This document shows, in pieces, positions 1 through 29,957 of a DNA stretch of 29,957 nt (position 1 is its first letter; each line of letters starts with the position of its first letter). The notes beneath the pieces were generated by a model, which worked only from the letters and a program-made list of their open reading frames with translations, was not told the DNA's origin and did not search any database. The stretch covers positions 1-29,957 of IMG/VR virus record IMGVR_UViG_3300045988_042754, one strand, 5' to 3'. Source of the stretch: a virus. The position numbers and the translations under genes are program-made.

Positions 1-95
1 CACCCGGTCTAAAGACATACGGGAGTAGGGCTAAGTCAATGTGGGTAACTTGGGTGACCACCTACTCTGTCCAAAAATTTTTAAGAAAAAAAAAG
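1..95. repeat. Terminal direct repeat, copy 1 (identical to 29863-29957)
   Basis: CACCCGGTCTAAAGACATACGGG...TTTTTAAGAAAAAAAAAG was read at both window ends and matched base for base. Confidence 0.95.
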
Positions 96-149
96 AAAAA
101 AAAGAGTATATAAAAGATAAACCCCAAAGTAACCCACCCAAGTCACCCA
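43..149. promoter_or_regulatory. Right half of the TerL-portal intergenic array
   Basis: Contains inverted heptamers GGGTAAC (43-49) and GGGTGAC (52-58), A5T5 (74-83), A9 (86-94), A8 (96-103) and TATATAAAA (107-115). The dyad unit GTAACCCACCCAAGTCACCCA lies at 129-149. The region is non-coding and sits upstream of the portal gene. Confidence 0.6.
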
Positions 150-254
150 GCCCTTTTGTGACACTTAACATCTAACATCGCCTATCAGCTTGTGTCGGGC
201 GGTTGCTAAAATCGAGAGATGAACCATAAGCCACGAAGACCTTGGAGGTCGGCA

Positions 255-19204: not shown

Positions 19205-19519
19205 TTAATACCGGTCGGCTTCATGCCGTAGGAACGCCGCTATTGCTGTTGCGGTGGCGTACCCTACTGCTTGTACCGCCTTACGCCGTTCGCCTCTTAG
19301 GATGACGGTTACGGCAAGAAACACTGGCAATGTGACGTAGGGGGCGGCGCACCAACCGCAATCGGCTAGCGCGTCCAAGTGTCCGACTGTCATGTGTTCC
19401 CGCCACCATGCGCGGGCGTTTTCGAAGACATGCGCCGGACCGTCCGACACCTGTATGACTGTGATGGCATATCCAGCGATAAGCCCGGCGACGATGCTGT
19501 TTCTTATCGTATGGTTCAT
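19205..19519 (-). CDS. Small multi-pass membrane protein with CxxC (DUF1360-like)
   Basis: ATGA overlap with the upstream gene. About 3 hydrophobic segments are present. The ALADCGWCAAPYV motif resembles the C-x-W-C motif I associate with DUF1360 proteins. Confidence 0.45.
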   Translation of the reverse strand: MNHTIRNSIVAGLIAGYAITVIQVSDGPAHVFENARAWWREHMTVGHLDALADCGWCAAPYVTLPVFLAVTVILRGERRKAVQAVGYATATAIAAFLRHEADRY

Positions 19520-19752
19520 AGCTGATTCATGTCCTTTACGGCGTGGCCGTCATATTCGGCGAACGGTGGTTGGAGCCTGTGCTGACGGGTGAGTTCGCCT
19601 CTCAAACTGGAGCCGGGCGGTACGATCATGGCGAACGTGCCGTGCTTCATGGCCCAATCGCGGCCGGAGTCCAGATACGCCTTGGAAGCAGGGTCACATG
19701 TCGGGCATTTGTCGAACACCAGTCGTAACGGTGGCTTGCGTGTCTTGCTCAA
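19516..19752 (-). CDS. Glutaredoxin/NrdH-like thioredoxin-fold protein (78 aa)
   Basis: The TTG start lies 8 nt after AAAGGA. LRLVFDKCPTCDPASKAYLD matches the beta1-CPxC-alpha1 pattern. The C-terminal QPPFAEYDGHAVKDMNQL parallels the glutaredoxin TVPQIFIxGxHIGGxDDL motif. Confidence 0.55.
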   Translation of the reverse strand: MSKTRKPPLRLVFDKCPTCDPASKAYLDSGRDWAMKHGTFAMIVPPGSSLRGELTRQHRLQPPFAEYDGHAVKDMNQL

Positions 19753-20240
19753 TGTTCGAATCCTTTCATGAAACGCTGGAAGTCGACATCGTCTTTGAAT
19801 AGCCGGTACCAGTCGATGCAGGCGTTGACTTTGCCCTCATGATCGCAGAACCGGTCGAGGATACCTGTTTCGGTTTCATGCTCGGTGAGGTACAGGCCGA
19901 TATCGATGAATACCAGATGGTCCACCTCGATGCCGCCATCCTTGTATCCGATGAGCGCCACGTTTTCGTCGTGGATCCATAGGTTGTCGGGGTGTAGGTA
20001 TGTTTCGTGTCCGGCGAGAGCGTAATAGGTGCGTCCGGTGCGGATGGCCTCGCTTGCCGGTGCGTCTCCGAAACATGCGCCGTGGAACACGTCGCCTTGG
20101 ATATAACCATGGTCGGTGATTCCATCGATGCTGCTGTACCGGTATGCTTCCGCCTTGGTCCAGTCTGTGTCGGCGTCGTATGGTGGCAGCACCTTAGTGT
20201 CGAGTGTGTAGGTGATGGTTTGGATGATGTCTGTGAACAT
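19749..20240 (-). CDS. Hypothetical protein (163 aa), accessory
   Basis: SD AAGGAG lies 6 nt before the ATG. It has its own upstream AAGGTGTTACACTGG element. I recognise no family. Confidence 0.6.
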   Translation of the reverse strand: MFTDIIQTITYTLDTKVLPPYDADTDWTKAEAYRYSSIDGITDHGYIQGDVFHGACFGDAPASEAIRTGRTYYALAGHETYLHPDNLWIHDENVALIGYKDGGIEVDHLVFIDIGLYLTEHETETGILDRFCDHEGKVNACIDWYRLFKDDVDFQRFMKGFEH

Positions 20241-20275
20241 GGGTTGCTCCTTGATGTTTATTGGGTTGGCACTTA

Positions 20276-20290
20276 CCAGTGTAACACCTT
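20276..20290 (-). promoter_or_regulatory. Extended -10-type promoter element AAGGTGTTACACTGG (copy 1)
   Basis: TGtTACACT fits TGn-TAnnnT. The element lies 36-50 nt upstream of start codon 20240. Confidence 0.5.
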
Positions 20291-20293
20291 GTG

Positions 20294-20322
20294 TGGATTT
20301 TTTCCGGCGTTTCTGCTATAAT
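20294..20322 (+). promoter_or_regulatory. Orphan plus-strand promoter: TGGATT-N17-TATAAT with TGc extended -10
   Basis: TGCTATAAT lies at 20314-20322. It sits back to back with the minus-strand element at 20276-20290. No plausible plus-strand CDS follows. Confidence 0.5.
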
Positions 20323-20327
20323 CGGTG

Positions 20328-20434
20328 AACGTGAGATTGCAGGCGGTCTCCTTACGCCTCCCTCGCGTTGGGTGATGAATGCTGAAGCCCGACCGGTTTT
20401 ATTGGGTTCCCCGGTCGGGCTTCACTGTTTCTTG
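20328..20434 (+). ncRNA. Candidate ~105-nt small RNA (promoter-to-terminator unit)
   Basis: The predicted transcription start is about 20328, after the TATAAT. An internal hairpin AGGCG/CGCCT displays the loop GTCTCCTTA, followed by CCTCCC. The unit ends in a 13-bp terminator hairpin followed by ACTGTTTCTT. Confidence 0.3.
20384..20434. terminator. 13-bp perfect stem-loop, with a T-rich tail on the plus strand only
   Basis: GAAGCCCGACCGG (20384-20396) pairs with CCGGTCGGGCTTC (20411-20423), followed by ACTGTTTCTTG. The same 11-mer tail follows the 18798 hairpin. The stem-loop lies 20 nt downstream of the minus-strand gene at 20444-20890. Confidence 0.65.
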
Positions 20435-20443
20435 ACGTGGATG

Positions 20444-20890
20444 CTAGATCTTCCAGTCGATGTTGTCTTCACCGACCTCATCGTTCCACTTGTCGTTATG
20501 GCTTCCGTCCGCATTGAAGTAAGAGGCGAGCTGTGCGGCGTCCATGGTCAGGCCGTCTCCCATGACAACGATGGGGCTTGACATGACTACACCGGTTTCG
20601 GCCTTGAACGTCCCGTATGGCATGTGTACGACCGTATGGTGTTCGCCGTCCGAACAAAGGTCCGGGGTGAACGGTTTCAACGGCGTGATTTCAATGCGGT
20701 AGGCGTCCCCGGCGTATGGTTTCGGGTCGGACAGCAGTACCGCGCCTGGAAGGATGACTTCGCCCTGGAGGCGTTCGCCGGCCACCTTGTACATGGTTTC
20801 CGCCTTCACATAGGTTTTCACTTCGTCGCTTCCAAGAAGGTACTGGGTTGGTCCGGCGACAGCGTACCAGATCCCGCTTGCGATGTGCAT
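20444..20890 (-). CDS. Hypothetical protein (148 aa), single gene insulated by hairpins
   Basis: The start was moved to ATG 20890 after AAAGGA. The ORF-track N-terminal extension runs through a hairpin and intergenic DNA. I recognise no family. Confidence 0.6.
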   Translation of the reverse strand: MHIASGIWYAVAGPTQYLLGSDEVKTYVKAETMYKVAGERLQGEVILPGAVLLSDPKPYAGDAYRIEITPLKPFTPDLCSDGEHHTVVHMPYGTFKAETGVVMSSPIVVMGDGLTMDAAQLASYFNADGSHNDKWNDEVGEDNIDWKI

Positions 20891-20957
20891 TGTGGGGTTC
20901 CTTTCTGTGGGTGGTGTCAACTTCCTGTTGACGGTTTCCAATATAGCGGGTAGGGGA

Positions 20958-20983
20958 AAGCCCCGACACCAAGTCCGGGGCTT
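20958..20983 (-). terminator. Stem-loop after the prim-pol gene
   Basis: AAGCCCCG (20958-20965) pairs with CGGGGCTT (20976-20983). No U-tract follows on the minus strand. Confidence 0.4.
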
Positions 20984-21004
20984 CGACACATTATCCACAC
21001 ATTT

Positions 21005-22000
21005 CTAGAACGAGCCGGTATGAACTGGCTTGAACCGGCGGCGCGGCTTCTCACGCCGGTACGTCACGCACGGATCCTCTCCGCCGCCCGCGCCGCCGAA
21101 CTTGTCCCACGCGGACTTCAGAATCCCGTCACGTTCGGACGCGGCCACCGACTCGCTTTTGCGTTCCGGCGAGACCATGGACACGAACCCGTCCCCCAGT
21201 CCGAGCGCCGTATCCCATGCGCCGTGATGGCCTTCCGACTCCATTCCGGCCAACACCATGGCGAGCTTGCAGAATCCGTCATGACGGCTGGACTTCCCAT
21301 AGGTCGGGTCGGCTATATACTTGTCCATCACCGTTTGTACGGCCTTGCAACGGCCGTTCCGGTCGGTATCCGACGATAGGAGCGGCATGGGCCCGGCCGG
21401 CGTTTCACGCGGCGGCACGGGCTTTGTCTTCATGCGCTCCAGCCACGCTTGCGGTAACGGTGCGATGTCGGCGCGTGTTGGAACGCGACCGAGGCGCGAA
21501 CCGTCCGCAGCATACCATTCGTAGCGTTCACCGGAAGGATGGACGGAAGGCCATGCGCACAGGTAACGGTGCGAGTGCTGTATCGTGTCAACGCCTCCTC
21601 CAACGGCGTCGAAGTGCAGTCCGGCAGGTACCCGGTACAGGCGATGCCGGTACGGATTGTCCTGGTTGCCGTGGCAACTGGTAACGGTCGGCGGAAGTGC
21701 CCCGAGTTCGCTTTCAAGAGCCTCGATGGTCTTAACGCCGTCTTCCTTGACCCGGTGTCCGTCCGGCGCGTCAAGGTCCAGGGCGATGATGTCTTCCGGC
21801 AGTACGACGGCCAAGTTGAAGCCCGCATTACCGCGCCACTTCATGTCGGATTCGAACCAGTGAAGCACGGTCTCACGGTCGGGGTCTTTGCCGTCGTAGC
21901 CGGTGTAGCCTTTGCGTGGCGGAAACTTGTCTTTAGGTGGTAGCGGTATGACCCTCCAGCCTTCGGCCATGTATTCGGGCGCGGCGCATGTGAACAGCAT
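21005..22000 (-). CDS. Bifunctional DNA primase/polymerase (AEP prim-pol family)
   Basis: The start was moved to ATG 22000, 6 nt after AAGGAG. The N-terminus carries EGWRVIPLPPKDKFPPRKGYTGYDG and NLAVVLPEDIIALDLDAPDGH (DxD), and a downstream SHRY motif follows. Confidence 0.7.
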   Translation of the reverse strand: MLFTCAAPEYMAEGWRVIPLPPKDKFPPRKGYTGYDGKDPDRETVLHWFESDMKWRGNAGFNLAVVLPEDIIALDLDAPDGHRVKEDGVKTIEALESELGALPPTVTSCHGNQDNPYRHRLYRVPAGLHFDAVGGGVDTIQHSHRYLCAWPSVHPSGERYEWYAADGSRLGRVPTRADIAPLPQAWLERMKTKPVPPRETPAGPMPLLSSDTDRNGRCKAVQTVMDKYIADPTYGKSSRHDGFCKLAMVLAGMESEGHHGAWDTALGLGDGFVSMVSPERKSESVAASERDGILKSAWDKFGGAGGGEDPCVTYRREKPRRRFKPVHTGSF

Positions 22001-22020
22001 TGTGATCTCCTTATGTGAAT

Positions 22021-22065
22021 GGGGTGTGGCCGGGTGATTGACCACACCCCTAGTGTAACACCTTA
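22021..22065 (-). promoter_or_regulatory. AAGGTGTTACACTAG element (copy 2) followed by a 9-bp leader hairpin
   Basis: On the minus strand the sequence reads TAAGGTGTTACACTA (22065-22051, where TAA is the helicase stop). GGGGTGTGG/CCACACCCC (22050-22021) follows, then the SD and the prim-pol ATG. Confidence 0.45.
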
Positions 22066-23670
22066 GATGTCCCAGGCGGACTGTGAGGCGGTCATGGCCT
22101 GCACAGTGTCCATGGCTGGTTCGGCAACGTCCACCGGTTCCGTGTAGACGATGCGACGGGTCGGACGGCCGTGGAGCTTGCGGCCGGTTTTCTCGATCTG
22201 GATGCCGTACAACAGCAGGGCGTCCATGTTGCGGGTGAGGGCGTCACCCAAGCCTTTCGGACTGTTCGGCAAGCTACCGCCATACTTGTCGATGTTGCCA
22301 AGTTGACGTTTCTTCATGGCGGTCAACAAGTCCCCCATGGTCCACGTGTCGTTTTCCGTGAACACGCCTTCCTGAGCCATGTCCACCATGATAAGCACGG
22401 CGGTGGAGGCATCGGCGTTGTCAAGCTGGCTTTCCTTGGTGCTGGCGACGTACTGGGTGAGCAGGTCTTCGCCGGTAAGCTTGTCGTAGGCGTACACCCA
22501 GTGGCTGAATGCGGCGACACGGGTGGACACGGACGGGTTGGGCACGGTCTTCTCGAACGTGAGCATGATCTGCACGTACCGCAACATGCCACCGAGGATG
22601 CCGGGAATGAGACCGTCCCGCCACGACTCCCAGTTCGCGTTGTACGGCGGCTTGTGTTCGGCGGTGATCTCGATGAACCGGCTGGCCAAATCGGCACCGA
22701 CGCCGCGCAACGTGATGGCGGTCAGAATCGTTGGTTTGAGCATCGTGACGCTTGCCATCTCCGTATCCGTGTACAGCTGCCTCTTGGCGAGCGTGCCGCC
22801 CGTGCTGAAGGCGGTGAGCAAATCGCTGTGTTCGACCACATTGCTGAGGTTGTCGAACGCGGCGAGATAGCCTTGCGCTGCCACGGAGGCAAGGTCATCG
22901 TCATCGCATTTCTCACGGAGGCGGACGCCACGGTTGCCACCCTTGACGGCGAGCGCGTTGTCCACGAGAAGGATATCAGTGTCCATTACTGACGACTTGC
23001 CGTATCCGGCCGGGCCGGACAGGTTCTTGATGGGGATTTTCTCGCTGGGATGAGCGTAGCAGTAGGCGTCCCACAGCCACGACATTTTGACCTGCGTTTC
23101 GTTGAAGCCGGGGAACAGCTTCACGTAATCCGCCATGCTCCGCTCCCAGTCCACATTGAGGTCGGGGCGGGGCATTGGCGCGGTGCGACGTGAGCGACGG
23201 AACACGACGCCTTGCGCAGGCCGTTCCAGTTCCTCGATGATATCGGGGGTGATATGCCACACCGTGCGGTCGTGTTCGCGCGGCTGGCCGCCATCCACCC
23301 AGATTTCGTCTCCAACTCGGGTCATGCGGTAGGGGATGGGGTGTACAGGCCAATCGCCGCTTCCGGCCTTGAAACCGGCGATGGCGGACTTGATAGCGTT
23401 CGGCGTGGGCAGGTATCCGGTTTCGGCGCGTCCGAGTTTGACTGCCTGTGAATACAGGAGCCCCTCAGCGTTATCGGTTACCGGGCTTGCAATCCAACGG
23501 TCCGTTGCGACCGCGAGCAATGCGCCCGTCGTATCGTCCACAAGCCCCGAAAACGTATCCTCGTACCAGTCGAGAAGCTGGCTGTCGGTGAGTTTTTTCG
23601 GCTTGCGTGACGTGTCATTGTCTTCCATGGCGGCATCTTTGGTGCCGGTGGTGGTGATTTCGGTGCTCAT
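22063..23670 (-). CDS. P-loop NTPase, SF3/D5-like replicative helicase (origin-binding helicase candidate)
   Basis: The start was moved to ATG 23670 after AAAGGA. Walker A is GPAGYGKSS and a Walker B-like motif is YLAAFDNLS. It is adjacent to the prim-pol gene. The ORF-track N-terminal extension is translated repeat DNA. Confidence 0.55.
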   Translation of the reverse strand: MSTEITTTGTKDAAMEDNDTSRKPKKLTDSQLLDWYEDTFSGLVDDTTGALLAVATDRWIASPVTDNAEGLLYSQAVKLGRAETGYLPTPNAIKSAIAGFKAGSGDWPVHPIPYRMTRVGDEIWVDGGQPREHDRTVWHITPDIIEELERPAQGVVFRRSRRTAPMPRPDLNVDWERSMADYVKLFPGFNETQVKMSWLWDAYCYAHPSEKIPIKNLSGPAGYGKSSVMDTDILLVDNALAVKGGNRGVRLREKCDDDDLASVAAQGYLAAFDNLSNVVEHSDLLTAFSTGGTLAKRQLYTDTEMASVTMLKPTILTAITLRGVGADLASRFIEITAEHKPPYNANWESWRDGLIPGILGGMLRYVQIMLTFEKTVPNPSVSTRVAAFSHWVYAYDKLTGEDLLTQYVASTKESQLDNADASTAVLIMVDMAQEGVFTENDTWTMGDLLTAMKKRQLGNIDKYGGSLPNSPKGLGDALTRNMDALLLYGIQIEKTGRKLHGRPTRRIVYTEPVDVAEPAMDTVQAMTASQSAWDI

Positions 23671-23688
23671 GTGAGTTCCTTTCTGGTT

Positions 23689-23965
23689 GGGTGACATGTC
23701 CCATGATAGCGGGGTGATGTCACCTTCGGGTGACTTCAAGTCACCCTTTACAATTCCATCACATAATCGGGTGACATGTGAAGTCACCCCGAACATCAAT
23801 GTTACCCACCAAGTCACCCAAGGTCAGACCTACGTATGTAAGGTGTTGGAGCATATCGGGTGACTTGGTTAACCATCCACTCTCTTCCATACGTTTTCAA
23901 GGAAAATTGGCAAGAAAAAATATATATATAGTAGGAACCACAATGTAACCCACCCAAGTTACCCA
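23689..23965. promoter_or_regulatory. Divergent intergenic array of GGGTGAC/GTCACCC heptamers and an AT-rich tract
   Basis: Heptamers lie at 23689, 23719, 23728, 23740, 23769, 23783, 23801, 23813, 23858, 23945 and 23958. GGGTGACTTcAAGTCACCC at 23728-23746 is a perfect palindrome. A6(TA)5 lies at 23915-23930. Dyad units lie at 23801-23819 and 23945-23965. Confidence 0.65.
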
Positions 23966-24011
23966 TTGCCTTATTTGGCGGCTTCGTGAAGGCGGTTTGC
24001 GTACGACGGTG

Positions 24012-24026
24012 AAGGTGTTACACTCG
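24012..24026 (+). promoter_or_regulatory. AAGGTGTTACACTCG element (copy 3)
   Basis: It lies 32 nt upstream of ATG 24058. Confidence 0.5.
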
Positions 24027-24057
24027 TAACCGTCAACCCAAGGAAAGAAAACCCACG

Positions 24058-24345
24058 ATGACACAGGACAAGAAAGCGTTCATGCGCACCATGCCGGACT
24101 ACCCACGCCGAAGCACGCTGCCGAACGGGTCCATCCAACTCAGGCAGCTTCTCGACCGGCGATGGGTGAAGGACGCGGATGGCGAAGGCATCAGGGACGT
24201 GGTGGAGAAAATCACCTACCCGACCACCGGCGCGCCAGTCCGCGAACGATACATGGAAACCCACTACATGTCCCACAGCAAGGACGGTGAGGGCTTCACC
24301 CCTGATTGGGTGTTGCAGGCCGTCCCCGACAATTGGAATCTGTGA
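24058..24345 (+). CDS. Hypothetical early protein (95 aa)
   Basis: SD AAGGAAAG. It is the first gene of the rightward early operon. The composition looks coding, unlike the antisense ORF 23971-24366. Confidence 0.6.
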   Translation: MTQDKKAFMRTMPDYPRRSTLPNGSIQLRQLLDRRWVKDADGEGIRDVVEKITYPTTGAPVRERYMETHYMSHSKDGEGFTPDWVLQAVPDNWNL

Positions 24346-24472
24346 TAACAGGATAGAGACCAACAAAAGACGCTCTTAGCACTTTTTGGCGACCAAGTAC
24401 TACACATTGTCCGGCTTCAACCGGAACACCCGTTAGAGGCCCCAAAGAATCGCCTACAGAGGCATGTATCCC

Positions 24473-24488
24473 GTCACCCGTACACTGG
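24473..24488 (+). promoter_or_regulatory. GTCACCC heptamer abutting a TACACTGG -10-like element upstream of whiB
   Basis: GTCACCCGTACACTGG ends 34 nt upstream of ATG 24523. Confidence 0.35.
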
Positions 24489-24522
24489 ATGGCGGGATAT
24501 TCTCGTATCTAGGAGGCAACCT

Positions 24523-24810
24523 ATGAGAACCGACTGGCAACACTCCGCCGCATGCCGTGACCTCGACCCAGATCTGTTCGTACCCGACTCGATGGACCTA
24601 GCCGGACTCGAAGTGGCGTTATCCACGTGCGAGACGTGCCCGGTGAAATCAGAATGCGCCCGGTTCGGCGAATGGGACGGCGTGGGTAGACCGGACAAGA
24701 AGCGTCGCACCCATGCTACCGGTGTATGGGGCGGCGTCTACTACTATCCGATGGGATTGGGCACGATGGACTTGAAACAATGCCGGAAACTGTTGAGAAA
24801 ACAGGGATAA
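24523..24810 (+). CDS. whiB: WhiB-family Fe-S transcription factor
   Basis: SD AGGAGG. The protein carries the four-Cys pattern AACRDLDPDLF...CETCPVKSEC and a GVWGG turn, followed by a basic tail. Confidence 0.8.
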   Translation: MRTDWQHSAACRDLDPDLFVPDSMDLAGLEVALSTCETCPVKSECARFGEWDGVGRPDKKRRTHATGVWGGVYYYPMGLGTMDLKQCRKLLRKQG

Positions 24811-24818
24811 GTCGTTAC

Positions 24819-24833
24819 AAGGTGTTACACTGG
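24819..24833 (+). promoter_or_regulatory. AAGGTGTTACACTGG element (copy 4, identical 15-mer to copy 1)
   Basis: It ends 23 nt upstream of GTG 24857. Confidence 0.5.
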
Positions 24834-24856
24834 AGTCAGCAAGGGAGGTGAACCAA

Positions 24857-25024
24857 GTGAAACTCGAAACCATCATGGCCGCGTTTCCAATGGGAGACCG
24901 CAACGTGTGCAGCGTATGCGGCAAGCCCCTACCGGACACCGCACAGCACCGCGACACGTGCTCCAACGCCTGCCGCGTATGGAAACACCGGCACCCCGGA
25001 CAGAAAAGGAAACCAAGGAAATAA
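24857..25024 (+). CDS. Small Zn-ribbon protein (55 aa), below the ORF-track cut-off
   Basis: GTG 24857 lies 8 nt after GGGAGG (24843-24848), with in-frame ATGs at 24875 and 24890 as alternative starts. I translated it as VKLETIMAAFPMGDRNVCSVCGKPLPDTAQHRDTCSNACRVWKHRHPGQKRKPRK. It has a CxxC...CxxxC pattern and a basic tail. Confidence 0.55.
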   Translation: MKLETIMAAFPMGDRNVCSVCGKPLPDTAQHRDTCSNACRVWKHRHPGQKRKPRK

Positions 25025-25064
25025 AACAAGAACACCCGTCAAGCATAGGAAAGGAACCCACATC

Positions 25065-25964
25065 ATGACACACACCAACCACGCGCTCCATCTGAACGCA
25101 TTTGCTGGAAACTGGACAATCGACCAGGACGGCACGCTCACCATCAAAGGACGGGATGACCGGTATCGCGGCGTCACGTTCCACCAACCCTACAACACGC
25201 TCGACTGGGAGCACAAGCAGGATGCCCGCGATCTGGACCGCGCCATCTGCATCATGGCCGAACCGGACGGTTACGTTGGATGTTACAGAATCGACCTTGA
25301 AGGCGATACCCTGTTCGCATGGTGCTACGACACCGACTCGCCAACCGGCATCCGCACCGTGACGATTATGCACGACGGCGTGAAAAGCGGTCAGGGACAG
25401 AACGTCTTCGCGGTCATCATTCCGAACCGTGTCGACCGTGAGAGTATCCACCTGACCGGCGACGATTCGCATGCGCCATTCCCCGGATCGCCTCTCCCCG
25501 CACTGTGCGAAATCGAATGGGAAGGATTGGATGACGGCGTGGACGTTTCCAATTGGCGGCCATGCTCTGAAGACGTTTCCGACTCAAGCAAAGTCACCTA
25601 CACGATGGCCCTTGACGCACTGCGGGCCGCACTGAACATCACGGCCGCGCACGCCCTCAGCATCGTGGACACCGCGTGCGAAAACGAGCCGACAGATCTC
25701 GGTGAATACTACACAGTCACAGGACACCGGTTCATTCAGCTACGACCGCACGAGTGGATCCCGGTACCATTCCCGGCCGAAGGTACGACATGGGATTGGG
25801 ATGACGTGAAGCTGGAGCTTGACGGGTTCCCGCTGATAGCATCCACGAACCCGCTGGCAGACTTGCCGTCCGACAAAATCAAAGCGTTGGAAGCCGGACT
25901 GGAGGCGTTGCGGACGCTGAGACTGTCCGGTGTTGACTGGCAGCGTCTCGCCGCCGAAGAGTAA
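25065..25964 (+). CDS. Hypothetical acidic protein (299 aa)
   Basis: SD AGGAAAGGA. The composition looks coding. I recognise no family. Confidence 0.6.
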   Translation: MTHTNHALHLNAFAGNWTIDQDGTLTIKGRDDRYRGVTFHQPYNTLDWEHKQDARDLDRAICIMAEPDGYVGCYRIDLEGDTLFAWCYDTDSPTGIRTVTIMHDGVKSGQGQNVFAVIIPNRVDRESIHLTGDDSHAPFPGSPLPALCEIEWEGLDDGVDVSNWRPCSEDVSDSSKVTYTMALDALRAALNITAAHALSIVDTACENEPTDLGEYYTVTGHRFIQLRPHEWIPVPFPAEGTTWDWDDVKLELDGFPLIASTNPLADLPSDKIKALEAGLEALRTLRLSGVDWQRLAAEE

Positions 25965-25973
25965 ACGTCCATG

Positions 25974-26008
25974 CCGTCCATTCTCCAAGTATCCTAGAGA
26001 ATGGACGG
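25974..26008 (+). terminator. 12-bp perfect stem-loop at an operon sub-boundary
   Basis: CCGTCCATTCTC (25974-25985) pairs with GAGAATGGACGG (25997-26008), followed by CTTATCTGATT. Confidence 0.5.
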
Positions 26009-26029
26009 CTTATCTGATTGGAGGAACGT

Positions 26030-26422
26030 ATGCCGGTCAAAAGCAAGCATCAGCAGAAATACAATGCCAATCCCACAGGCAAGGGCGGTTTTGGCGACAG
26101 GCCGTGGACGATCAACCGCACCGGTCGTTGGAACCCGGCCGACTCATACCCGGAACAGTTGCGCAGATATTTTCGCATGACCGCCGCACAGTTGGATGAA
26201 GAGTCCAGGAAAGACGGGTTGACCACGGCGCAGATGATGGCTCTGACCGCCATCAAGGATGCGATGATGCTGGAAGGCAAGGCGCGTATCGACGCCATCG
26301 AGAAACTGTCCGACCGTATCGACGGGCGGCCGTTGCAGGCGGTGGAACAGGCCGTATCGGTTGCAGCCCCGCCTCAGATCACGGTCGAGTTCCCGGATGA
26401 CAGTAGGGAGATTGAGAAATGA
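26030..26422 (+). CDS. DUF5681-like DNA-binding protein, putative small terminase subunit
   Basis: ATG 26030 follows GGAGGA. The N-terminal NPTGKGGFGDRPWTINRTGRWN and the C-terminal ...ARIDAIEKLSDRIDGRPLQ resemble motifs seen in small-terminase/DUF5681 proteins. This rests on recollection and was not searched. Confidence 0.35.
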   Translation: MPVKSKHQQKYNANPTGKGGFGDRPWTINRTGRWNPADSYPEQLRRYFRMTAAQLDEESRKDGLTTAQMMALTAIKDAMMLEGKARIDAIEKLSDRIDGRPLQAVEQAVSVAAPPQITVEFPDDSREIEK

Positions 26423-26667
26423 TTGACTTCGAAGCATTGAAAGCCCAGGTTGAGGATGACATGGCCCGCACGGATGCCGACTTCAGGTATCGTCGGTGGT
26501 GTGAGTCGAACGATATCGCGTGGGAGGAATTCACGTCGCTGATTATCGACCCGTCCTATTCGGTGTCCAGCCTGTTGCGCGTGTTGAAGGCGAACGGATT
26601 GGACACGACGGACGGGTCGTTGCGTAGTCTCAGGCGTCGTTTGGAAGGGGCCGTCCATGAGTCTTGA
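26419..26667 (+). CDS. Hypothetical small protein (82 aa), possible DNA-binding
   Basis: ATGA overlap with the upstream gene. It is helical and ends with a basic segment. Confidence 0.5.
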   Translation: MIDFEALKAQVEDDMARTDADFRYRRWCESNDIAWEEFTSLIIDPSYSVSSLLRVLKANGLDTTDGSLRSLRRRLEGAVHES

Positions 26668-27826
26668 GGATCTCCGGTCGCAGTTGAAGAATGATGCGAC
26701 CCGTGAGGCGAACAATCGTCTGAAGCCGGAATACCGGCCGCACGTGGAGATGGGCGCGACCAACGGAACCGCCGCGACTGGCCTCGTGTCCACGTCGCTT
26801 ATCGGGAACGATGATGACCTGTTGCGCTTGGCTGGATTGGATCCGGCCGAATGGTGTCTGGATGCCGGGTCGAAGAAAATCTGGTGTCATACCGACGATG
26901 ATGACAAGCGCAGCATCTACTTCGGTTTTCATAAGCGGAACAAGGATGATGCGGTGGCCGCTTGGCTGGCCGCGCCGTTCAAGGGCGTGGAGCCGGTGCA
27001 TGATGCTCCGTGCGAGGGTCTGCCGCTTATCGTCTGTCTGGCTGACATGCAGACCGGCAAAGCGGGTGAAGCGCACGGTGGGACGATGGAGCTTGTCGAA
27101 CGGTGCGAGAACATTCTTGGACAATTGAAGGCGTTGTGCGAGCGTGAGCGCCCGCGTGAAATCGTTGTGGCTGATCTCGGGGACATTTGCGAGGGCACGA
27201 ACAATCACACGTCCACGTCCCAGGCGAGCACGAACGATTTGCCGCAATCCGAACAATTGCGTGTGGCAGGGCGTATCCTTATGGAATACGTGACCACGCT
27301 CGCACCATTATGCGCTCATCTCACGTTGGCAGGCGTCCGCTCCAATCATGGCGAGGAACGTTTGGCGAATGGTCAGGTGAACGGTGTAGGCGATTGGGGT
27401 GTGGCTCTGATCAAGACCATCGGTGACGCCATCGAACTGTTGGATGGTGGTTTCAGGGAGCGTGTCACGGTGTTGACCGAACAGCCGTTGGCGCATGGTC
27501 TCGCTTTGGAGGTGGAGGGCGCTCATATCGCCATGCTTCACGGCCATTACGCGAAGAAGGTCACGAAGCTGGGAGATTGGGTGGCGCAACAGGCTGGCGG
27601 CATCCGTGACACGATCTATCGTGACGCCACGACCGTCATACACGGCCACTTCCACCATCTGACCGTGCAGGAAAGCCGTGGGCGCGTCATATACGGGTGT
27701 CCAGCCTTGGAATGCGGTTCTGACTGGTTGACCCGTTCGAACGGCGAGTACAGCAATCCAGGCGTCCTGACCTTGAGGGTGAAGGATGGCCGCACATGCG
27801 GCTTGCGGATATTCGAAAGGCAGTAG
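26657..27826 (+). CDS. Calcineurin-like metallophosphoesterase (Mre11/SbcD-like nuclease candidate)
   Basis: The ordered motifs are VVADLGDICEG (GDxxxxG), GVRSNHGE (GNHE-like), AMLHGH and VIHGHFHH (GHxH). Confidence 0.7.
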   Translation: MSLEDLRSQLKNDATREANNRLKPEYRPHVEMGATNGTAATGLVSTSLIGNDDDLLRLAGLDPAEWCLDAGSKKIWCHTDDDDKRSIYFGFHKRNKDDAVAAWLAAPFKGVEPVHDAPCEGLPLIVCLADMQTGKAGEAHGGTMELVERCENILGQLKALCERERPREIVVADLGDICEGTNNHTSTSQASTNDLPQSEQLRVAGRILMEYVTTLAPLCAHLTLAGVRSNHGEERLANGQVNGVGDWGVALIKTIGDAIELLDGGFRERVTVLTEQPLAHGLALEVEGAHIAMLHGHYAKKVTKLGDWVAQQAGGIRDTIYRDATTVIHGHFHHLTVQESRGRVIYGCPALECGSDWLTRSNGEYSNPGVLTLRVKDGRTCGLRIFERQ

Positions 27827-27830
27827 GACA

Positions 27831-27995
27831 ATGGGGCATCACATCGACCATGAACAGGTGTTCGGAGACACCATCGCCTACACGTGTTCATGCGGCAACA
27901 CGTATTACGGCTATTTCAACATGCTGGATCATGTGAAGGAAACGGAGCGCAGGAATGTCCAGAAACCGTACATCCGCGAAGCGTGCGGGGAGTAG
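27831..27995 (+). CDS. Hypothetical small protein (54 aa)
   Basis: ATG 27831 follows the upstream stop (TAG 27824-27826). It overlaps the next gene by 41 nt. Confidence 0.4.
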   Translation: MGHHIDHEQVFGDTIAYTCSCGNTYYGYFNMLDHVKETERRNVQKPYIREACGE

Positions 27996-28323
27996 TTTTG
28001 AACAGGCGACAGTGGATTACCTCAAAAAGGCCCTGAATCAGCCCGCTGTGGAACGTATACCTATGGGTGGCTCCAAGGATAGGGGCGACGTGGGAAACGT
28101 CCATACGAGGGCAGGTAGCCTTGTCGCCGTGGAATGCAAGAACGAGTCCACGCTACGCATACCGCAATACCTACGCGAAGCCAAAACGGAGGCCGGGCAT
28201 TACGGTGCCTTGTGCGGCGTGGCCGTGGTCAAACGTCGTGGTATCGGCATGACACCGGATCGAATGGGCGAACAACTCGTTTGCATGACGTTGGATGATC
28301 TGGTTCGGCTGTTGCTCGACTAG
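27955..28323 (+). CDS. PD-(D/E)xK nuclease, Holliday-junction resolvase-like
   Basis: The pattern is GSSFEQATVDYLKK...GGSKDRGDVGNV...LVAVECKNE, that is G-x-x-FE ... D ... ExK. Confidence 0.55.
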   Translation: MSRNRTSAKRAGSSFEQATVDYLKKALNQPAVERIPMGGSKDRGDVGNVHTRAGSLVAVECKNESTLRIPQYLREAKTEAGHYGALCGVAVVKRRGIGMTPDRMGEQLVCMTLDDLVRLLLD

Positions 28324-28337
28324 AATCGATGGTAGGA

Positions 28338-28383
28338 AAGCCCGCCTTCCAGCCTTGGCTTAAGGCCGCTGGACGGCGGGCTT
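28338..28383 (+). terminator. Long imperfect stem-loop between the nuclease gene and terL
   Basis: AAGCCCGCC (28338-28346) pairs with GGCGGGCTT (28375-28383). An inner TCCAGC/GCTGGA pairing is also present. Confidence 0.4.
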
Positions 28384-28404
28384 CAACATTCTCTGGAGGC
28401 CAAT

Positions 28405-29691
28405 ATGGAGAAGCGTCTGAAAGTGCCGAAACCGTTTCGTCCTTTGTTCTGGTATCTGCAAGGCGAGGAAACATCGCCGTACCGGTATTATGCGTTGAGC
28501 GGTGGTCGTTCGTCCGGCAAGTCCACGACGGCCGCGATAAGCATTCTGCTACGTTGCTCGATGACATGCACCCGTGTCCTATGCGCCCGTGAGTTCCAGA
28601 ACAGTATCACGGAATCCGTGCAACGGCTTCTCGTGGATCTTATCGACGGGTACGGGCTGGTCGGGTTCACCGTGACCCGTGACGAGATTCGGCATGATAA
28701 CGGTAGCGTAATCATGTTCAAGGGTTTGCACAACAACGAGCAGACCATCAAGAGCACTGAAGGCGTGGACGTTTGTTGGGTGGAGGAGGCGCAGACCATC
28801 ACGGAACCCTCATTGGAGACGCTTATACCGACCATCCGCAAGGAAGGGTCGTATCTTATCTTCACCTGGAACCCGCTGACCGAGGATGACCCTGTGATGC
28901 GCCGGTTCGTGTCCAGTCCAACGCCGGGCGACAAGGCGATGACCTACTACTGTCATACGACGTACAAGGACATGGAGGCTGTCGGCTTGTTGAACGACAC
29001 GATTCGTCTTCAGGTAGAGGCTGCGGAAGGCTCACCCGAGTTCGCACACACATGGCTTGGCCGTCCGTACAACACGACGAACAACCAGATCATAAGCCGT
29101 ACCGAGCTGGACGCCGCGTTGACGGACACGACGCCTTACAACGCCTCGCATGTGCTTGGCGTGGATATCGCCCGGTATGGCAACGATCGTACAGCGATGG
29201 CCGATTGTTGGGGGAATGTCGTGTGGCGTGTGGACTCGTGGCGTCATGCGTCGATACCGGAGACGGCGCGGCGCGTGAAGGCGTATGCGGTGGAGGTGAA
29301 CGCGACCGCCGTACATGTGGACGATACCGGTGTGGGTGGCGGAGTAACCGACCTGTTGCGCGAGTGGGGCGTGCCTGTGGTGGGTGTGAACTTCGCGCAG
29401 AAGGCCGTTGAACCGCGCAAGTATCCGAATGCGAACAGTGAGATGTGGTTCAATTTCGCCGGTTCGATTTCCAGACATGAATTGAACTTGAATGCGTCGA
29501 TGCCTCAGCTTGAGGATTTGTGTGCCGAACTGACGGGTCGTGGCTGGAAGCTGGATGCGCAGGGCAGGCGTGCGGTCGAGTCGAAGTCGGACTTCAAGGC
29601 CGTGGCCGGCGCGTCCCCCGATCTTGCGGACGCGGTGCTCTTATCCGCGTACAGACCTCCGAAGATGCCTTCATGGAACGTGGTGGTGTAA
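28405..29691 (+). CDS. terL: Terminase large subunit (Terminase_3 / PBSX-type)
   Basis: SD GGAGG. Walker A is LSGGRSSGKST and Walker B plus the catalytic Glu is VCWVEEAQ. The C-terminal nuclease half contains GVDIARYGNDRTA. Confidence 0.85.
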   Translation: MEKRLKVPKPFRPLFWYLQGEETSPYRYYALSGGRSSGKSTTAAISILLRCSMTCTRVLCAREFQNSITESVQRLLVDLIDGYGLVGFTVTRDEIRHDNGSVIMFKGLHNNEQTIKSTEGVDVCWVEEAQTITEPSLETLIPTIRKEGSYLIFTWNPLTEDDPVMRRFVSSPTPGDKAMTYYCHTTYKDMEAVGLLNDTIRLQVEAAEGSPEFAHTWLGRPYNTTNNQIISRTELDAALTDTTPYNASHVLGVDIARYGNDRTAMADCWGNVVWRVDSWRHASIPETARRVKAYAVEVNATAVHVDDTGVGGGVTDLLREWGVPVVGVNFAQKAVEPRKYPNANSEMWFNFAGSISRHELNLNASMPQLEDLCAELTGRGWKLDAQGRRAVESKSDFKAVAGASPDLADAVLLSAYRPPKMPSWNVVV

Positions 29692-29727
29692 CACCAAATG
29701 AACATTTTTTTTGTTCGTTTTGTGGTT

Positions 29728-29867
29728 AGGTGACTTTGGGTGACCTAAAAAAAACACCTCACCCAAGTTACCCAAATTACCCATTTTGACCCCGAATTTC
29801 AGGTAACGTTCAGGAAACATTAGGGGACTTGAAGCAAAGTCACCCAAAGTCACCCACCAAGTCACCC
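29728..29867. promoter_or_regulatory. Left half of the TerL-portal intergenic heptamer array
   Basis: AGGTGAC (29728) and GGGTGAC (29738) are in inverted orientation. CTCACCC, GTTACCC (29767) and ATTACCC (29776) follow. Three direct GTCACCC copies lie at 29839, 29849 and 29861, spaced 10 and 12 bp apart. T8 (29705-29712) and A8 (29747-29754) flank the array. Confidence 0.6.
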
Positions 29868-29957
29868 GGTCTAAAGACATACGGGAGTAGGGCTAAGTCA
29901 ATGTGGGTAACTTGGGTGACCACCTACTCTGTCCAAAAATTTTTAAGAAAAAAAAAG
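29863..29957. repeat. Terminal direct repeat, copy 2 (identical to 1-95)
   Basis: Exact 95-nt match to the window start. Confidence 0.95.

Follow-up and report, generated by a model that had tools for sequence, protein, structure and literature searches.

Heptamer arrays at two non-coding loci of a tailed phage as candidate iterons for a replication initiator

Why would a phage carry an array of short repeats, spaced about one helical turn apart, in the gap between its large terminase (TerL) and portal genes, and carry the same repeats again in a distant gap beside a helicase gene? We addressed this question in a viral stretch of 29,957 nt (IMG/VR record IMGVR_UViG_3300045988_042754; "the window" below means this whole stretch), where the heptamer GTCACCC and its variants populate both the TerL-portal gap (locus A) and the divergent gap at 23671-24057 (locus B), which lies beside the helicase gene, between the helicase operon and a rightward operon. 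Positions 29863-29957 are an exact copy of 1-95 (95 nt, 100% identity): the window is a circularly closed phage contig whose terminal overlap adds no sequence to a unit genome of 29,862 bp, and the TerL-portal junction runs on into position 1. Because 29863-29957 repeats 1-95, the heptamers at 29905-29920 are those at 43-58. The reading that we develop here, and to which we give a probability of about 0.5, is that the repeats are iterons for the phage's replication initiator and that locus A is a second origin-like module with a late promoter at its portal-side end.

Motif statistics, layout and paralogy of the two loci

GTCACCC has 20 matches in the whole window, compared with 6.4 ± 2.8 in shuffled sequences, and 13 of its 19 unique copies fall in loci A and B, which together make up 2.7% of the genome. 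The flanking bases show that the real unit is longer, a 9-mer AWGTHACCC (A[A/T]GT[C/T/A]ACCC) with 18 matches (17 unique) against 1.05 expected, confined to locus A (7 unique) and locus B (10). Neighbours in the same orientation lie 9-13 bp apart, or roughly one helical turn. With at most one mismatch allowed, locus A holds 11 copies (plus two or three weaker ones) and locus B holds 13; in both, the number is in keeping with the iteron-count rule, which asks for a non-coding cluster of at least six repeats of 5-8 nt. A search of the literature for the motif gave nothing, and a scan of viral contigs for three spaced GTCACCC copies returned, among the matches listed, mostly unrelated tandem coding repeats. 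Stoperators of the mycobacteriophage L5 type are asymmetric sites for a repressor that are scattered along the genome and share a single orientation with respect to transcription. The sites described here are unlike that pattern, as they sit in two gaps and in both orientations.

Locus A begins just past the TerL stop with a terminator-like hairpin on the plus strand (AAAUGAACA-U7-UGUUCGUUU, 29696-29720; the fold of 29680-29735 has -15.2 kcal/mol, z = -2.5), the stem of which is kept in L171, a related 30.7-kb contig (nucleotide identity 85% in TerL, 82% in portal and 83% in helicase). A distal, variable heptamer block (29728-29792) follows. It consists of inverted heptamers on the minus strand at 29728-29744 (AGGTGAC and GGGTGAC in plus-strand reading, 10 bp apart), which are conserved in 12 close genomes, a 22-bp segment at 29745-29766 that is bounded by inverted heptamers and contains an A8 tract and CTCACCC, and a row of degenerate direct copies on the plus strand at 29758-29792 (CTCACCC at 29758, GTTACCC at 29767, ATTACCC at 29776 and TTGACCC at 29786, spaced 9, 9 and 10 bp). 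The 22-bp segment occurs in both orientations among close relatives: the window and two others (L008 and L143) have it one way, and nine other genomes of 97-98% identity carry its reverse complement. On this comparison it is a small inversion polymorphism within the array.

Three perfect AAGTCACCC copies lie at 29837-29867 on the plus strand, with their GTCACCC cores starting at 29839, 29849 and 29861 (spacing 10 and 12 bp); they open the module that locus A has in common with locus B, and they are conserved in 12 of the 13 genomes compared, L144 having one substitution in the third copy. A 37-nt spacer separates them from the inverted pair GGGTAACttGGGTGAC (GGGTAAC and GGGTGAC; 43-58, minus strand), which lies to the left of an AT-rich core and points away from it. 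The core itself (59-128, 70 bp, with A5T5, A9, A8 and TATATAAAAG) is a candidate DNA-unwinding element. On its right, the direct pair AAGTAACCCacccAAGTCACCC (127-148, plus strand) has the orientation opposite to that of 43-58 and is identical in L171. Beyond this pair comes a conserved block, TTTTGTGACACTTAACATCTAACATC (154-179, plus strand), which holds an extended -10-like TGTGACACT and a tandem TAACATC; no other stretch of the junction is conserved as well (unchanged across the 12 close genomes, one substitution in L171), and the block is absent from locus B. All of the direct, inverted and degenerate heptamers listed in the initial annotation are present, as are its A/T tracts (T8 at 29705-29712, A8 at 29747-29754, A5T5 at 73-82, A9 at 86-94 and A8 at 96-103), to within one or two bases of where it had placed them.

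Locus A resembles locus B well beyond the heptamer. A repeat search of the genome finds 80 nt of similarity at 73% identity, and alignment extends the match to about 250 nt at 76% identity (29837 to 215 against 23799 to 24030), with a common order of elements: direct pair, inverted pair, AT core, direct pair, extended -10. The inverted pair at 43-58 aligns with 23858-23873, and the direct pair at 127-148 aligns with 23943-23964, within which the direct pair of locus B occupies 23945-23964. In both loci the flanks read GGGTRAC twice, about 70 bp of AT-rich DNA and GTNACCC twice, so that each has an AT-rich centre between pairs of iterons of opposite direction, two per side, as the rule for origins of this kind describes. 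The two modules face the same way, each ahead of a rightward operon; the inverted pairs of locus B overlie the region just upstream of the helicase start, and locus A lies 5.9 kb from locus B and the helicase genes. Judged by this alignment, locus A is a paralogue of locus B, beyond merely carrying the same heptamer. The initial annotation had assigned one heptamer family to both large non-coding regions, and the confinement of AWGTHACCC together with the paralogy bears this out. Because the same family fills both gaps, its further suggestion that a single protein recognises both would follow naturally, and the paralogy strengthens it.

Duplex stability, calculated from nearest-neighbour energies in 50-bp windows across the genome, singles out the same two cores. 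The least stable 50-bp duplex of the genome lies at 72-122, in the core of locus A (z = 5.6), and the second least stable at 23884-23934, in the core of locus B (z = 4.3). In L171 the AT cores are again the two least stable windows (z = 5.0 and 4.8), and low stability is kept in its locus A core with TATATA replaced. Since L171 has lost TATATA there yet stays unstable, it is the composition that is conserved there and not the specific hexamer. TATATA was also considered as a specific -10 or TATA element in locus A and was rejected, being absent from L171 at that place.

Curvature was calculated with a wedge model and approximate parameters. By this estimate the genome should bend most near 29794 (z = -11), owing to CCCAA/CCCATTTT units that recur every 9-10 bp. 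The emphasis that the initial annotation had placed on phased A/T tracts is thus upheld in part, in that strong curvature is predicted, but this curvature is not kept in L171 (which retains heptamers in the 29758-29792 interval but not the sequence), and the A9/A8/TATATA stretch stands out by its low duplex stability, not by phasing.

Conservation of the junction extends to 12 near-identical genomes (TerL 97-98%; L139-L144 and L003-L008, from IMG/VR and including contigs titled as human-gut metagenome assemblies). A metagenome scan added relatives only at 97-98% or at no more than 48%. The 12 close genomes are too similar for footprinting, and a signal arose only with L171 and the comparison of paralogues. 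L171 keeps both loci, and eight of its 17 matches to AWGTHACCC lie in locus A, eight in locus B and one elsewhere (20 kb). Across four copies of the module (A and B of the window, A and B of L171), 79% of heptamer columns are invariant versus 40% of other columns (Fisher p = 6e-6), in a test whose rows are related and whose heptamers were defined on one of them. Locus B is about 91-96% identical in L132 and L133, in which the helicase protein is 84% identical, and 82% identical in L171. The contigs L171, L010 and L132 come from the public runs SRR25477955, SRR26197775 and SRR28284079, respectively.

The portal-side end of the module is formed by an extended -10 element, TGCTAAAAT (204-212, plus strand), a pattern match found by scanning non-coding DNA and a candidate late promoter for the portal-to-lysis operon, 43 nt before the ATG at 255. 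It reads TGCTARAAT in 12 relatives and aligns with TGTTACACT at 24016-24024 in locus B. A search for consensus sigma-70 promoters, with a -35 hexamer spaced 16-18 nt from the -10, found no site in 1-400, 29500-29957 or 23500-24200. The late promoter that the initial annotation had expected at this junction is plausible from the conserved TGCTAAAAT, the hairpin after TerL and the terminator hairpin found at this place in wider relatives.

Candidate initiator and co-occurrence of the arrays with replication genes

The gene that adjoins locus B (22063-23670, minus strand) encodes a 535-residue protein whose predicted fold matches that of an SF3/D5-like replicative helicase. An AlphaFold2 model built from 13 sequences (pLDDT 70, pTM 0.73) gave Foldseek matches to SCCmec Cch (5dgk, E = 4e-8), to NrS-1 (6k9c, C-terminal region) and to the SaPI5 primase-helicase (7ola), with further matches to monkeypox virus (MPXV) E5 and the African swine fever virus (ASFV) PrimPol and to the poxvirus E5/D5 class; the protein also contains a Walker A motif, GPAGYGKS. 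Residues 445-509 are modelled as a helix-helix-helix-strand-strand unit that is winged-helix-like (pLDDT 61-78 there), and the C-terminal SPKGLGDxLTRN...TGRKLHGRPTRR as well as the basic hairpin (wing) of this unit are conserved among homologues of 78-96% identity. Directly downstream lies the gene for a Prim-Pol primase-polymerase (21005-22045, minus strand; Pfam Prim-Pol, E = 2.2e-25), and the rule that an SF3-clade helicase and a primase stand beside the origin thus describes locus B. Distant homologues of the helicase (25-30% identity) occur in P4-type integrase-AlpA-primase/helicase islands. Between the window and L132 the helicase is the most diverged segment, flanked by locus B and Prim-Pol at 91-98%; from this comparison the helicase gene is mosaic or fast-evolving.

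Searches of Pfam (to E <= 5), PHROGs and PDB sequences gave no match for the 535-, 95-, 299-, 130- and 82-residue proteins, and Pfam and PHROGs scans of the early genes found no gp38-type origin-binding protein, loader or DnaB-type helicase. The 95-residue protein, encoded by the first gene of the rightward operon (24058-24345), yields a confident model (pLDDT 87.5) of a helix and a long curved antiparallel sheet, with weak NTF2/VirB8-like resemblance and no DNA-binding match; it was set aside as the heptamer binder on account of this fold. The 82-residue protein has a helix-turn-helix (HTH)-like segment and is 30% identical in L010, a relative whose heptamer is the same.

In L010 (TerL 75% identical in amino acids), heptamers follow directly after the TerL stop, and TATATATA, three heptamers and TGTTACAAT lie upstream of the first rightward gene; the contig breaks at both loci, as would be expected of an internal repeat. 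More distant relatives separate the arrays from the packaging genes. BlindUri1 and L011 (TerL about 50%) share with the window the small-terminase (TerS) candidate, TerL, portal and structural genes, but are without the helicase, Prim-Pol, 95-residue protein, WhiB, 82-residue protein, exonuclease and RusA. No heptamers were found in their TerL-portal gaps (135-173 nt, hairpin terminator present) or in the divergent region of BlindUri1, and BlindBasel1 is also without arrays. Because relatives that share the packaging genes but not the replication/early module have no arrays, the arrays, on the genomes compared, travel with that module and not with the packaging module.

Origin-like modules, rival explanations and known systems

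Under the iteron reading, the heptamers would be short asymmetric sites for the phage's own initiator, most likely the helicase (22063-23670) acting through its C-terminal winged-helix-like domain. In each locus, an easily melted AT core between opposed iteron pairs would form an origin-type core; the opposed pairs would suit the loading of two helicase rings outward from the melted bubble, and extra iterons would lie upstream. Locus A could then serve as another origin in its own right, or act in cis as a partner to locus B, comparable to crr of P4 or oriR of SPP1. The duplicated unit runs into the extended -10, and binding of the initiator would probably also affect the portal-to-lysis promoter. 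In iteron plasmids, inverted sites are found at autoregulated rep promoters; by analogy, the inverted pairs near the helicase start would autoregulate the helicase promoter. A more ambitious version, which we think improbable, is that the junction acts as a coupling device, at which occupancy by the initiator or arrival of a fork would both trigger a switch to concatemers (on the model put forward for oriR of SPP1, with the adjacent exonuclease and RusA-type resolvase) and turn the late promoter on. If so, late transcription and packaging would be replication-dependent in a small actinophage without a recognisable late regulator.

Several observations weigh against the iteron reading. The modules point towards, and end in, promoter-like elements, and pure transcription control would fit this geometry equally well. 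The helicase is put forward as binder on the grounds of adjacency and fold, and its predicted winged helix comes from the part of the model at pLDDT 61-78. The helicase aligns with P4 alpha in the Walker A motif only (BLASTP E = 0.26, hhalign probability 14%), and a quick repeat scan around its distant homologues gave no clear iterons. Detrended GC and AT skew show no polarity switch that would mark an origin. Among the 12 close genomes the heptamer columns are no better conserved than the spacers, and in L132 the helicase gene has 77-89% nucleotide identity versus 91-96% for locus B, the iterons thus diverging more slowly.

If the heptamers were instead operators of a transcription regulator that is not an initiator, the duplicated module would be purely a control region: the regulator would act jointly on the rightward promoters TGTTACACT (24016) and TGCTAAAAT (204), the inverted pairs of locus B would control the leftward helicase promoter, and the AT core would serve as an UP-like or bent upstream element. 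We regard this as a possible but rather unlikely account. It draws on the layout, in which co-oriented modules end about 55 nt upstream of an extended -10 ahead of an operon, and on the TerL-portal junction, which is a transcription-unit boundary across the whole phage family; moreover, TATATATATAG of locus B is identical in L171, and a WhiB-like factor, a small zinc-ribbon protein and the 82-residue HTH-like protein are encoded just downstream of locus B. However, the protein family scans found no recognised sequence-specific regulator domain, the 95-residue protein that comes first after locus B does not model as a DNA-binding fold, and the HTH-like protein has diverged to 30% identity in L010 despite an unchanged heptamer. 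In locus A, L171 keeps the low duplex stability but not the TATATA. No heptamers lie near three other promoter-like AAGGTGTTACACT sites, and the 11-14 monomer-type sites per locus, in mixed orientations, would be unusual for an operator.

The initial annotation had also offered the junction as a pac or cos site, or as a binding site for the small terminase. On this account (pac/cosB-like), TerS would bind phased heptamers on bent DNA, and the copies at locus B would have another use; we consider it very unlikely. A pac site is normally unique and usually lies in or beside terS, whereas the motif here is equally frequent at locus B, 5.9 kb away, and the TerS gene lies 3.3 kb upstream of the array. 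BlindUri1 and L011 have conserved versions of the TerS candidate, TerL and portal but no junction arrays, and the curvature is not conserved in L171. What recommends a packaging site is that the array adjoins terL and that its 9-13 bp repeats and the curvature near 29794 recall the SPP1 pac region (pacL/pacC/pacR), where the small terminase gp1 binds pacL and pacR and where short repeats about one turn apart, bent DNA, promoter overlap and closeness to terminase genes likewise come together (PMC6316719). The window and the IMG/VR contig L004 both break inside the junction as well, but these breaks can be put down to the internal repeat and homopolymers. The other 11 related contigs end at scattered places (about 18.1-19.0 kb, 3.9-5.4 kb, 23.6 kb and 25.2-26.9 kb), and contig ends, compared here over 13 related contigs, are weak evidence on packaged DNA ends. 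Least probable of all, in our view, is that the control region of locus B was duplicated recently, by recombination for instance, and that locus A is a mostly neutral copy whose heptamers persist only through its youth. The 76% identity of the loci over about 250 nt, the equal conservation of heptamer and spacer columns in close relatives, and the local instability implied by a 22-bp segment that flips between strains would all be expected of such an event. The duplication nevertheless predates the split from L171 (genes 82-85% identical in nucleotides) and from L010, both of which keep junction heptamers; the heptamer columns are selectively invariant across paralogues and orthologues, and in L171 heptamers are still present in the distal part of locus A despite the turnover of its sequence.

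The iteron reading finds its closest parallel in the Staphylococcus aureus pathogenicity islands (SaPIs). Their Rep proteins are self-loading helicases of the SF3 clade with a C-terminal winged helix that binds iterons of 5-6 nt, 6-12 per ori, and the ori has an AT-rich centre with at least two iterons on each side in opposite directions (PMC9371898). Both modules described here follow this rule of opposed iterons around an AT centre, and locus B, like a SaPI ori, lies beside the rep gene. The phage encodes an SF3-like helicase with a predicted winged-helix-like C-terminus and a primase, and PriRep5 of SaPI5 (7ola) is among the best structural matches of the helicase model. The differences are equally clear: there is no detectable sequence homology, the iterons are 7-9 nt instead of 5-6 nt, and the module lies upstream of the helicase gene, whereas that of SaPIs lies downstream. 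The phage also has two modules, the second 5.9 kb off between terL and portal, and it is a complete tailed phage with a probable actinobacterial host and not a satellite in Staphylococcus aureus.

The satellite phage P4 offers a precedent for two distant loci. In its record (NC_001609), ori and crr are 4.7 kb apart, and each contains 8-nt type 1 repeats that occur in either orientation at a spacing of 9-11 bp. As in our case, the same repeat occurs at both loci in both orientations beside AT-rich DNA, the initiators (alpha in P4, the proposed helicase here) are of one structural class, and the initiator gene lies beside one of the two loci. Unlike P4, the phage here has a helicase that is not a sequence homologue of alpha, encodes primase and helicase as separate genes (alpha is a primase-helicase), and uses GTCACCC where P4 has TGTTCACC; crr comprises a pair of direct repeats of 120 bp each, and locus A one module with extra iterons upstream.

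In SPP1, oriL and oriR have the same organisation, direct repeats with an AT-rich unwinding element, and are both bound by gp38; oriR is a non-coding segment within the region of late, packaging and head genes, and in a proposed model the initiator at oriR stalls the fork and triggers a switch from theta replication to concatemers together with a Holliday-junction resolvase and a 5'-3' exonuclease (PMC6316719). The present phage likewise has repeats and AT-rich DNA in two regions of similar organisation, one of which falls within the late region, and it encodes an exonuclease and a RusA-type resolvase just upstream of TerL. In contrast, the origin-binding protein of SPP1 is distinct from its helicase, which is of the DnaB type and works with a loader, where the present phage has an SF3/D5-like helicase and Prim-Pol; SPP1 oriL lies inside gene 38 where locus B is intergenic, and there is no sequence relationship. 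By analogy, the system described here would work like those of SaPIs, P4 and SPP1 while being a sequence-level member of none.

Phages with two origins are already known, and the lineage described here is uncharacterised. Should the iteron reading hold, a phage lineage seen only in metagenomes would gain a defined replication system made up of two origin-like modules, their 9-nt iteron and a putative self-loading initiator of the SF3 helicase type; none of these parts has sequence similarity to characterised systems. It would extend the SaPI/P4-type design of helicase and iteron origin to complete tailed phages and to high-GC Gram-positive hosts, and would provide a natural case for asking what an origin-like site in the late region does, be it firing, pairing with the first, fork stalling or control of late genes. 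The two loci would also be candidate minimal replicons for vectors, and would explain why assemblies of these phages break at both places.

Genome context, promoters and further observations

The genome is organised in three arms. The late operon runs rightward from 255 to about 19118 and encodes a portal-MuF fusion, a protease-capsid fusion, tail genes and a GH25/CW_7/LysM lysin; the leftward arm (19205-23670) includes Prim-Pol and the 535-residue protein; and the rightward early/middle operon (24058-29691) encodes the 95-residue protein, a WhiB-like factor, a zinc-ribbon open reading frame (ORF), a 299-residue protein, the TerS candidate, the 82-residue protein, the exonuclease (26657-27826), the RusA-type resolvase (27955-28323) and, as its last gene, TerL (28405-29691, plus strand; Pfam Terminase_3, E = 1.7e-32). 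The TerS candidate (26030-26422, plus strand) lies 2 kb upstream of TerL and has a homologue that adjoins TerL in BlindUri1 and another in L011; the DUF5681-like label that the initial annotation had given it was not reproduced, no Pfam match being found even at E <= 5. Judging from the WhiB gene and the closest isolates, the host is probably an actinobacterium. These isolates are the Bifidobacterium asteroides phages BlindUri1 and BlindBasel1 (L001 and L002), from honeybee, with TerL 49% identical, whereas the relatives of 97-98% identity include the human-gut contigs. No prophage or episomal copy was found in the representative-genome collection, and no Rfam family anywhere in the window.

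The portal-MuF fusion (244-2486 with its GGAGG ribosome-binding site, plus strand; Pfam Phage_portal, 2.4e-19, and a weak Phage_Mu_F match) has two candidate starts. The longest ORF begins at ATG 219, and ATG 255 has GGAGG 6 nt upstream. In 11 close relatives position 219 reads GTG, while GGAGG-N6-ATG is retained at 255 in all of them, which makes ATG 255 the probable true start. The TerL-portal gap therefore measures 389 bp, as initially annotated, only if the portal starts at ATG 219, and more likely 425 bp.

A 13-nt sequence, AAGGTGTTACACT, which contains TGTTACACT, occurs four times in the genome (24012-24024 and 24819-24831 on the plus strand, 22060-22048 and 20290-20278 on the minus strand). 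All four copies are non-coding and run in the sense direction, 35-50 nt ahead of a gene start; they are probably the family of early promoters of this phage, and the corresponding site in L010 reads TGTTACAAT. Plus-strand GC skew stays near +0.05 throughout the three arms, the leftward-transcribed arm included, and AT skew tracks gene orientation. The uniform GC skew fits one strand always leading, as in unidirectional or rolling-circle replication, and is not diagnostic.

Further features concern the operon downstream of locus B and the leftward arm. The 299-residue gene (25065-25964) is absent in L132 and weakly similar in L010, and several related contigs break in or near it, a distribution that marks it as an accessory or variable cassette. 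A perfect 12-bp inverted repeat at 25965-26017 (CCGTCCATTCTC-N11-GAGAATGGACGG) immediately precedes the TerS candidate; it may act as a terminator, or else make a better packaging-signal candidate. In the 203-nt gap of the leftward arm, a consensus extended -10, TGCTATAAT (20314-20322, plus strand), faces antisense into 20444-20998 and may drive an antisense transcript. The zinc-ribbon ORF (24848-25024, plus strand) starts with GTG behind a AAGGGAGG ribosome-binding site and encodes a 58-residue CxxC...CxxxC zinc-ribbon-like peptide with a basic tail, which is conserved in L010 (50%) and L132 (95%).

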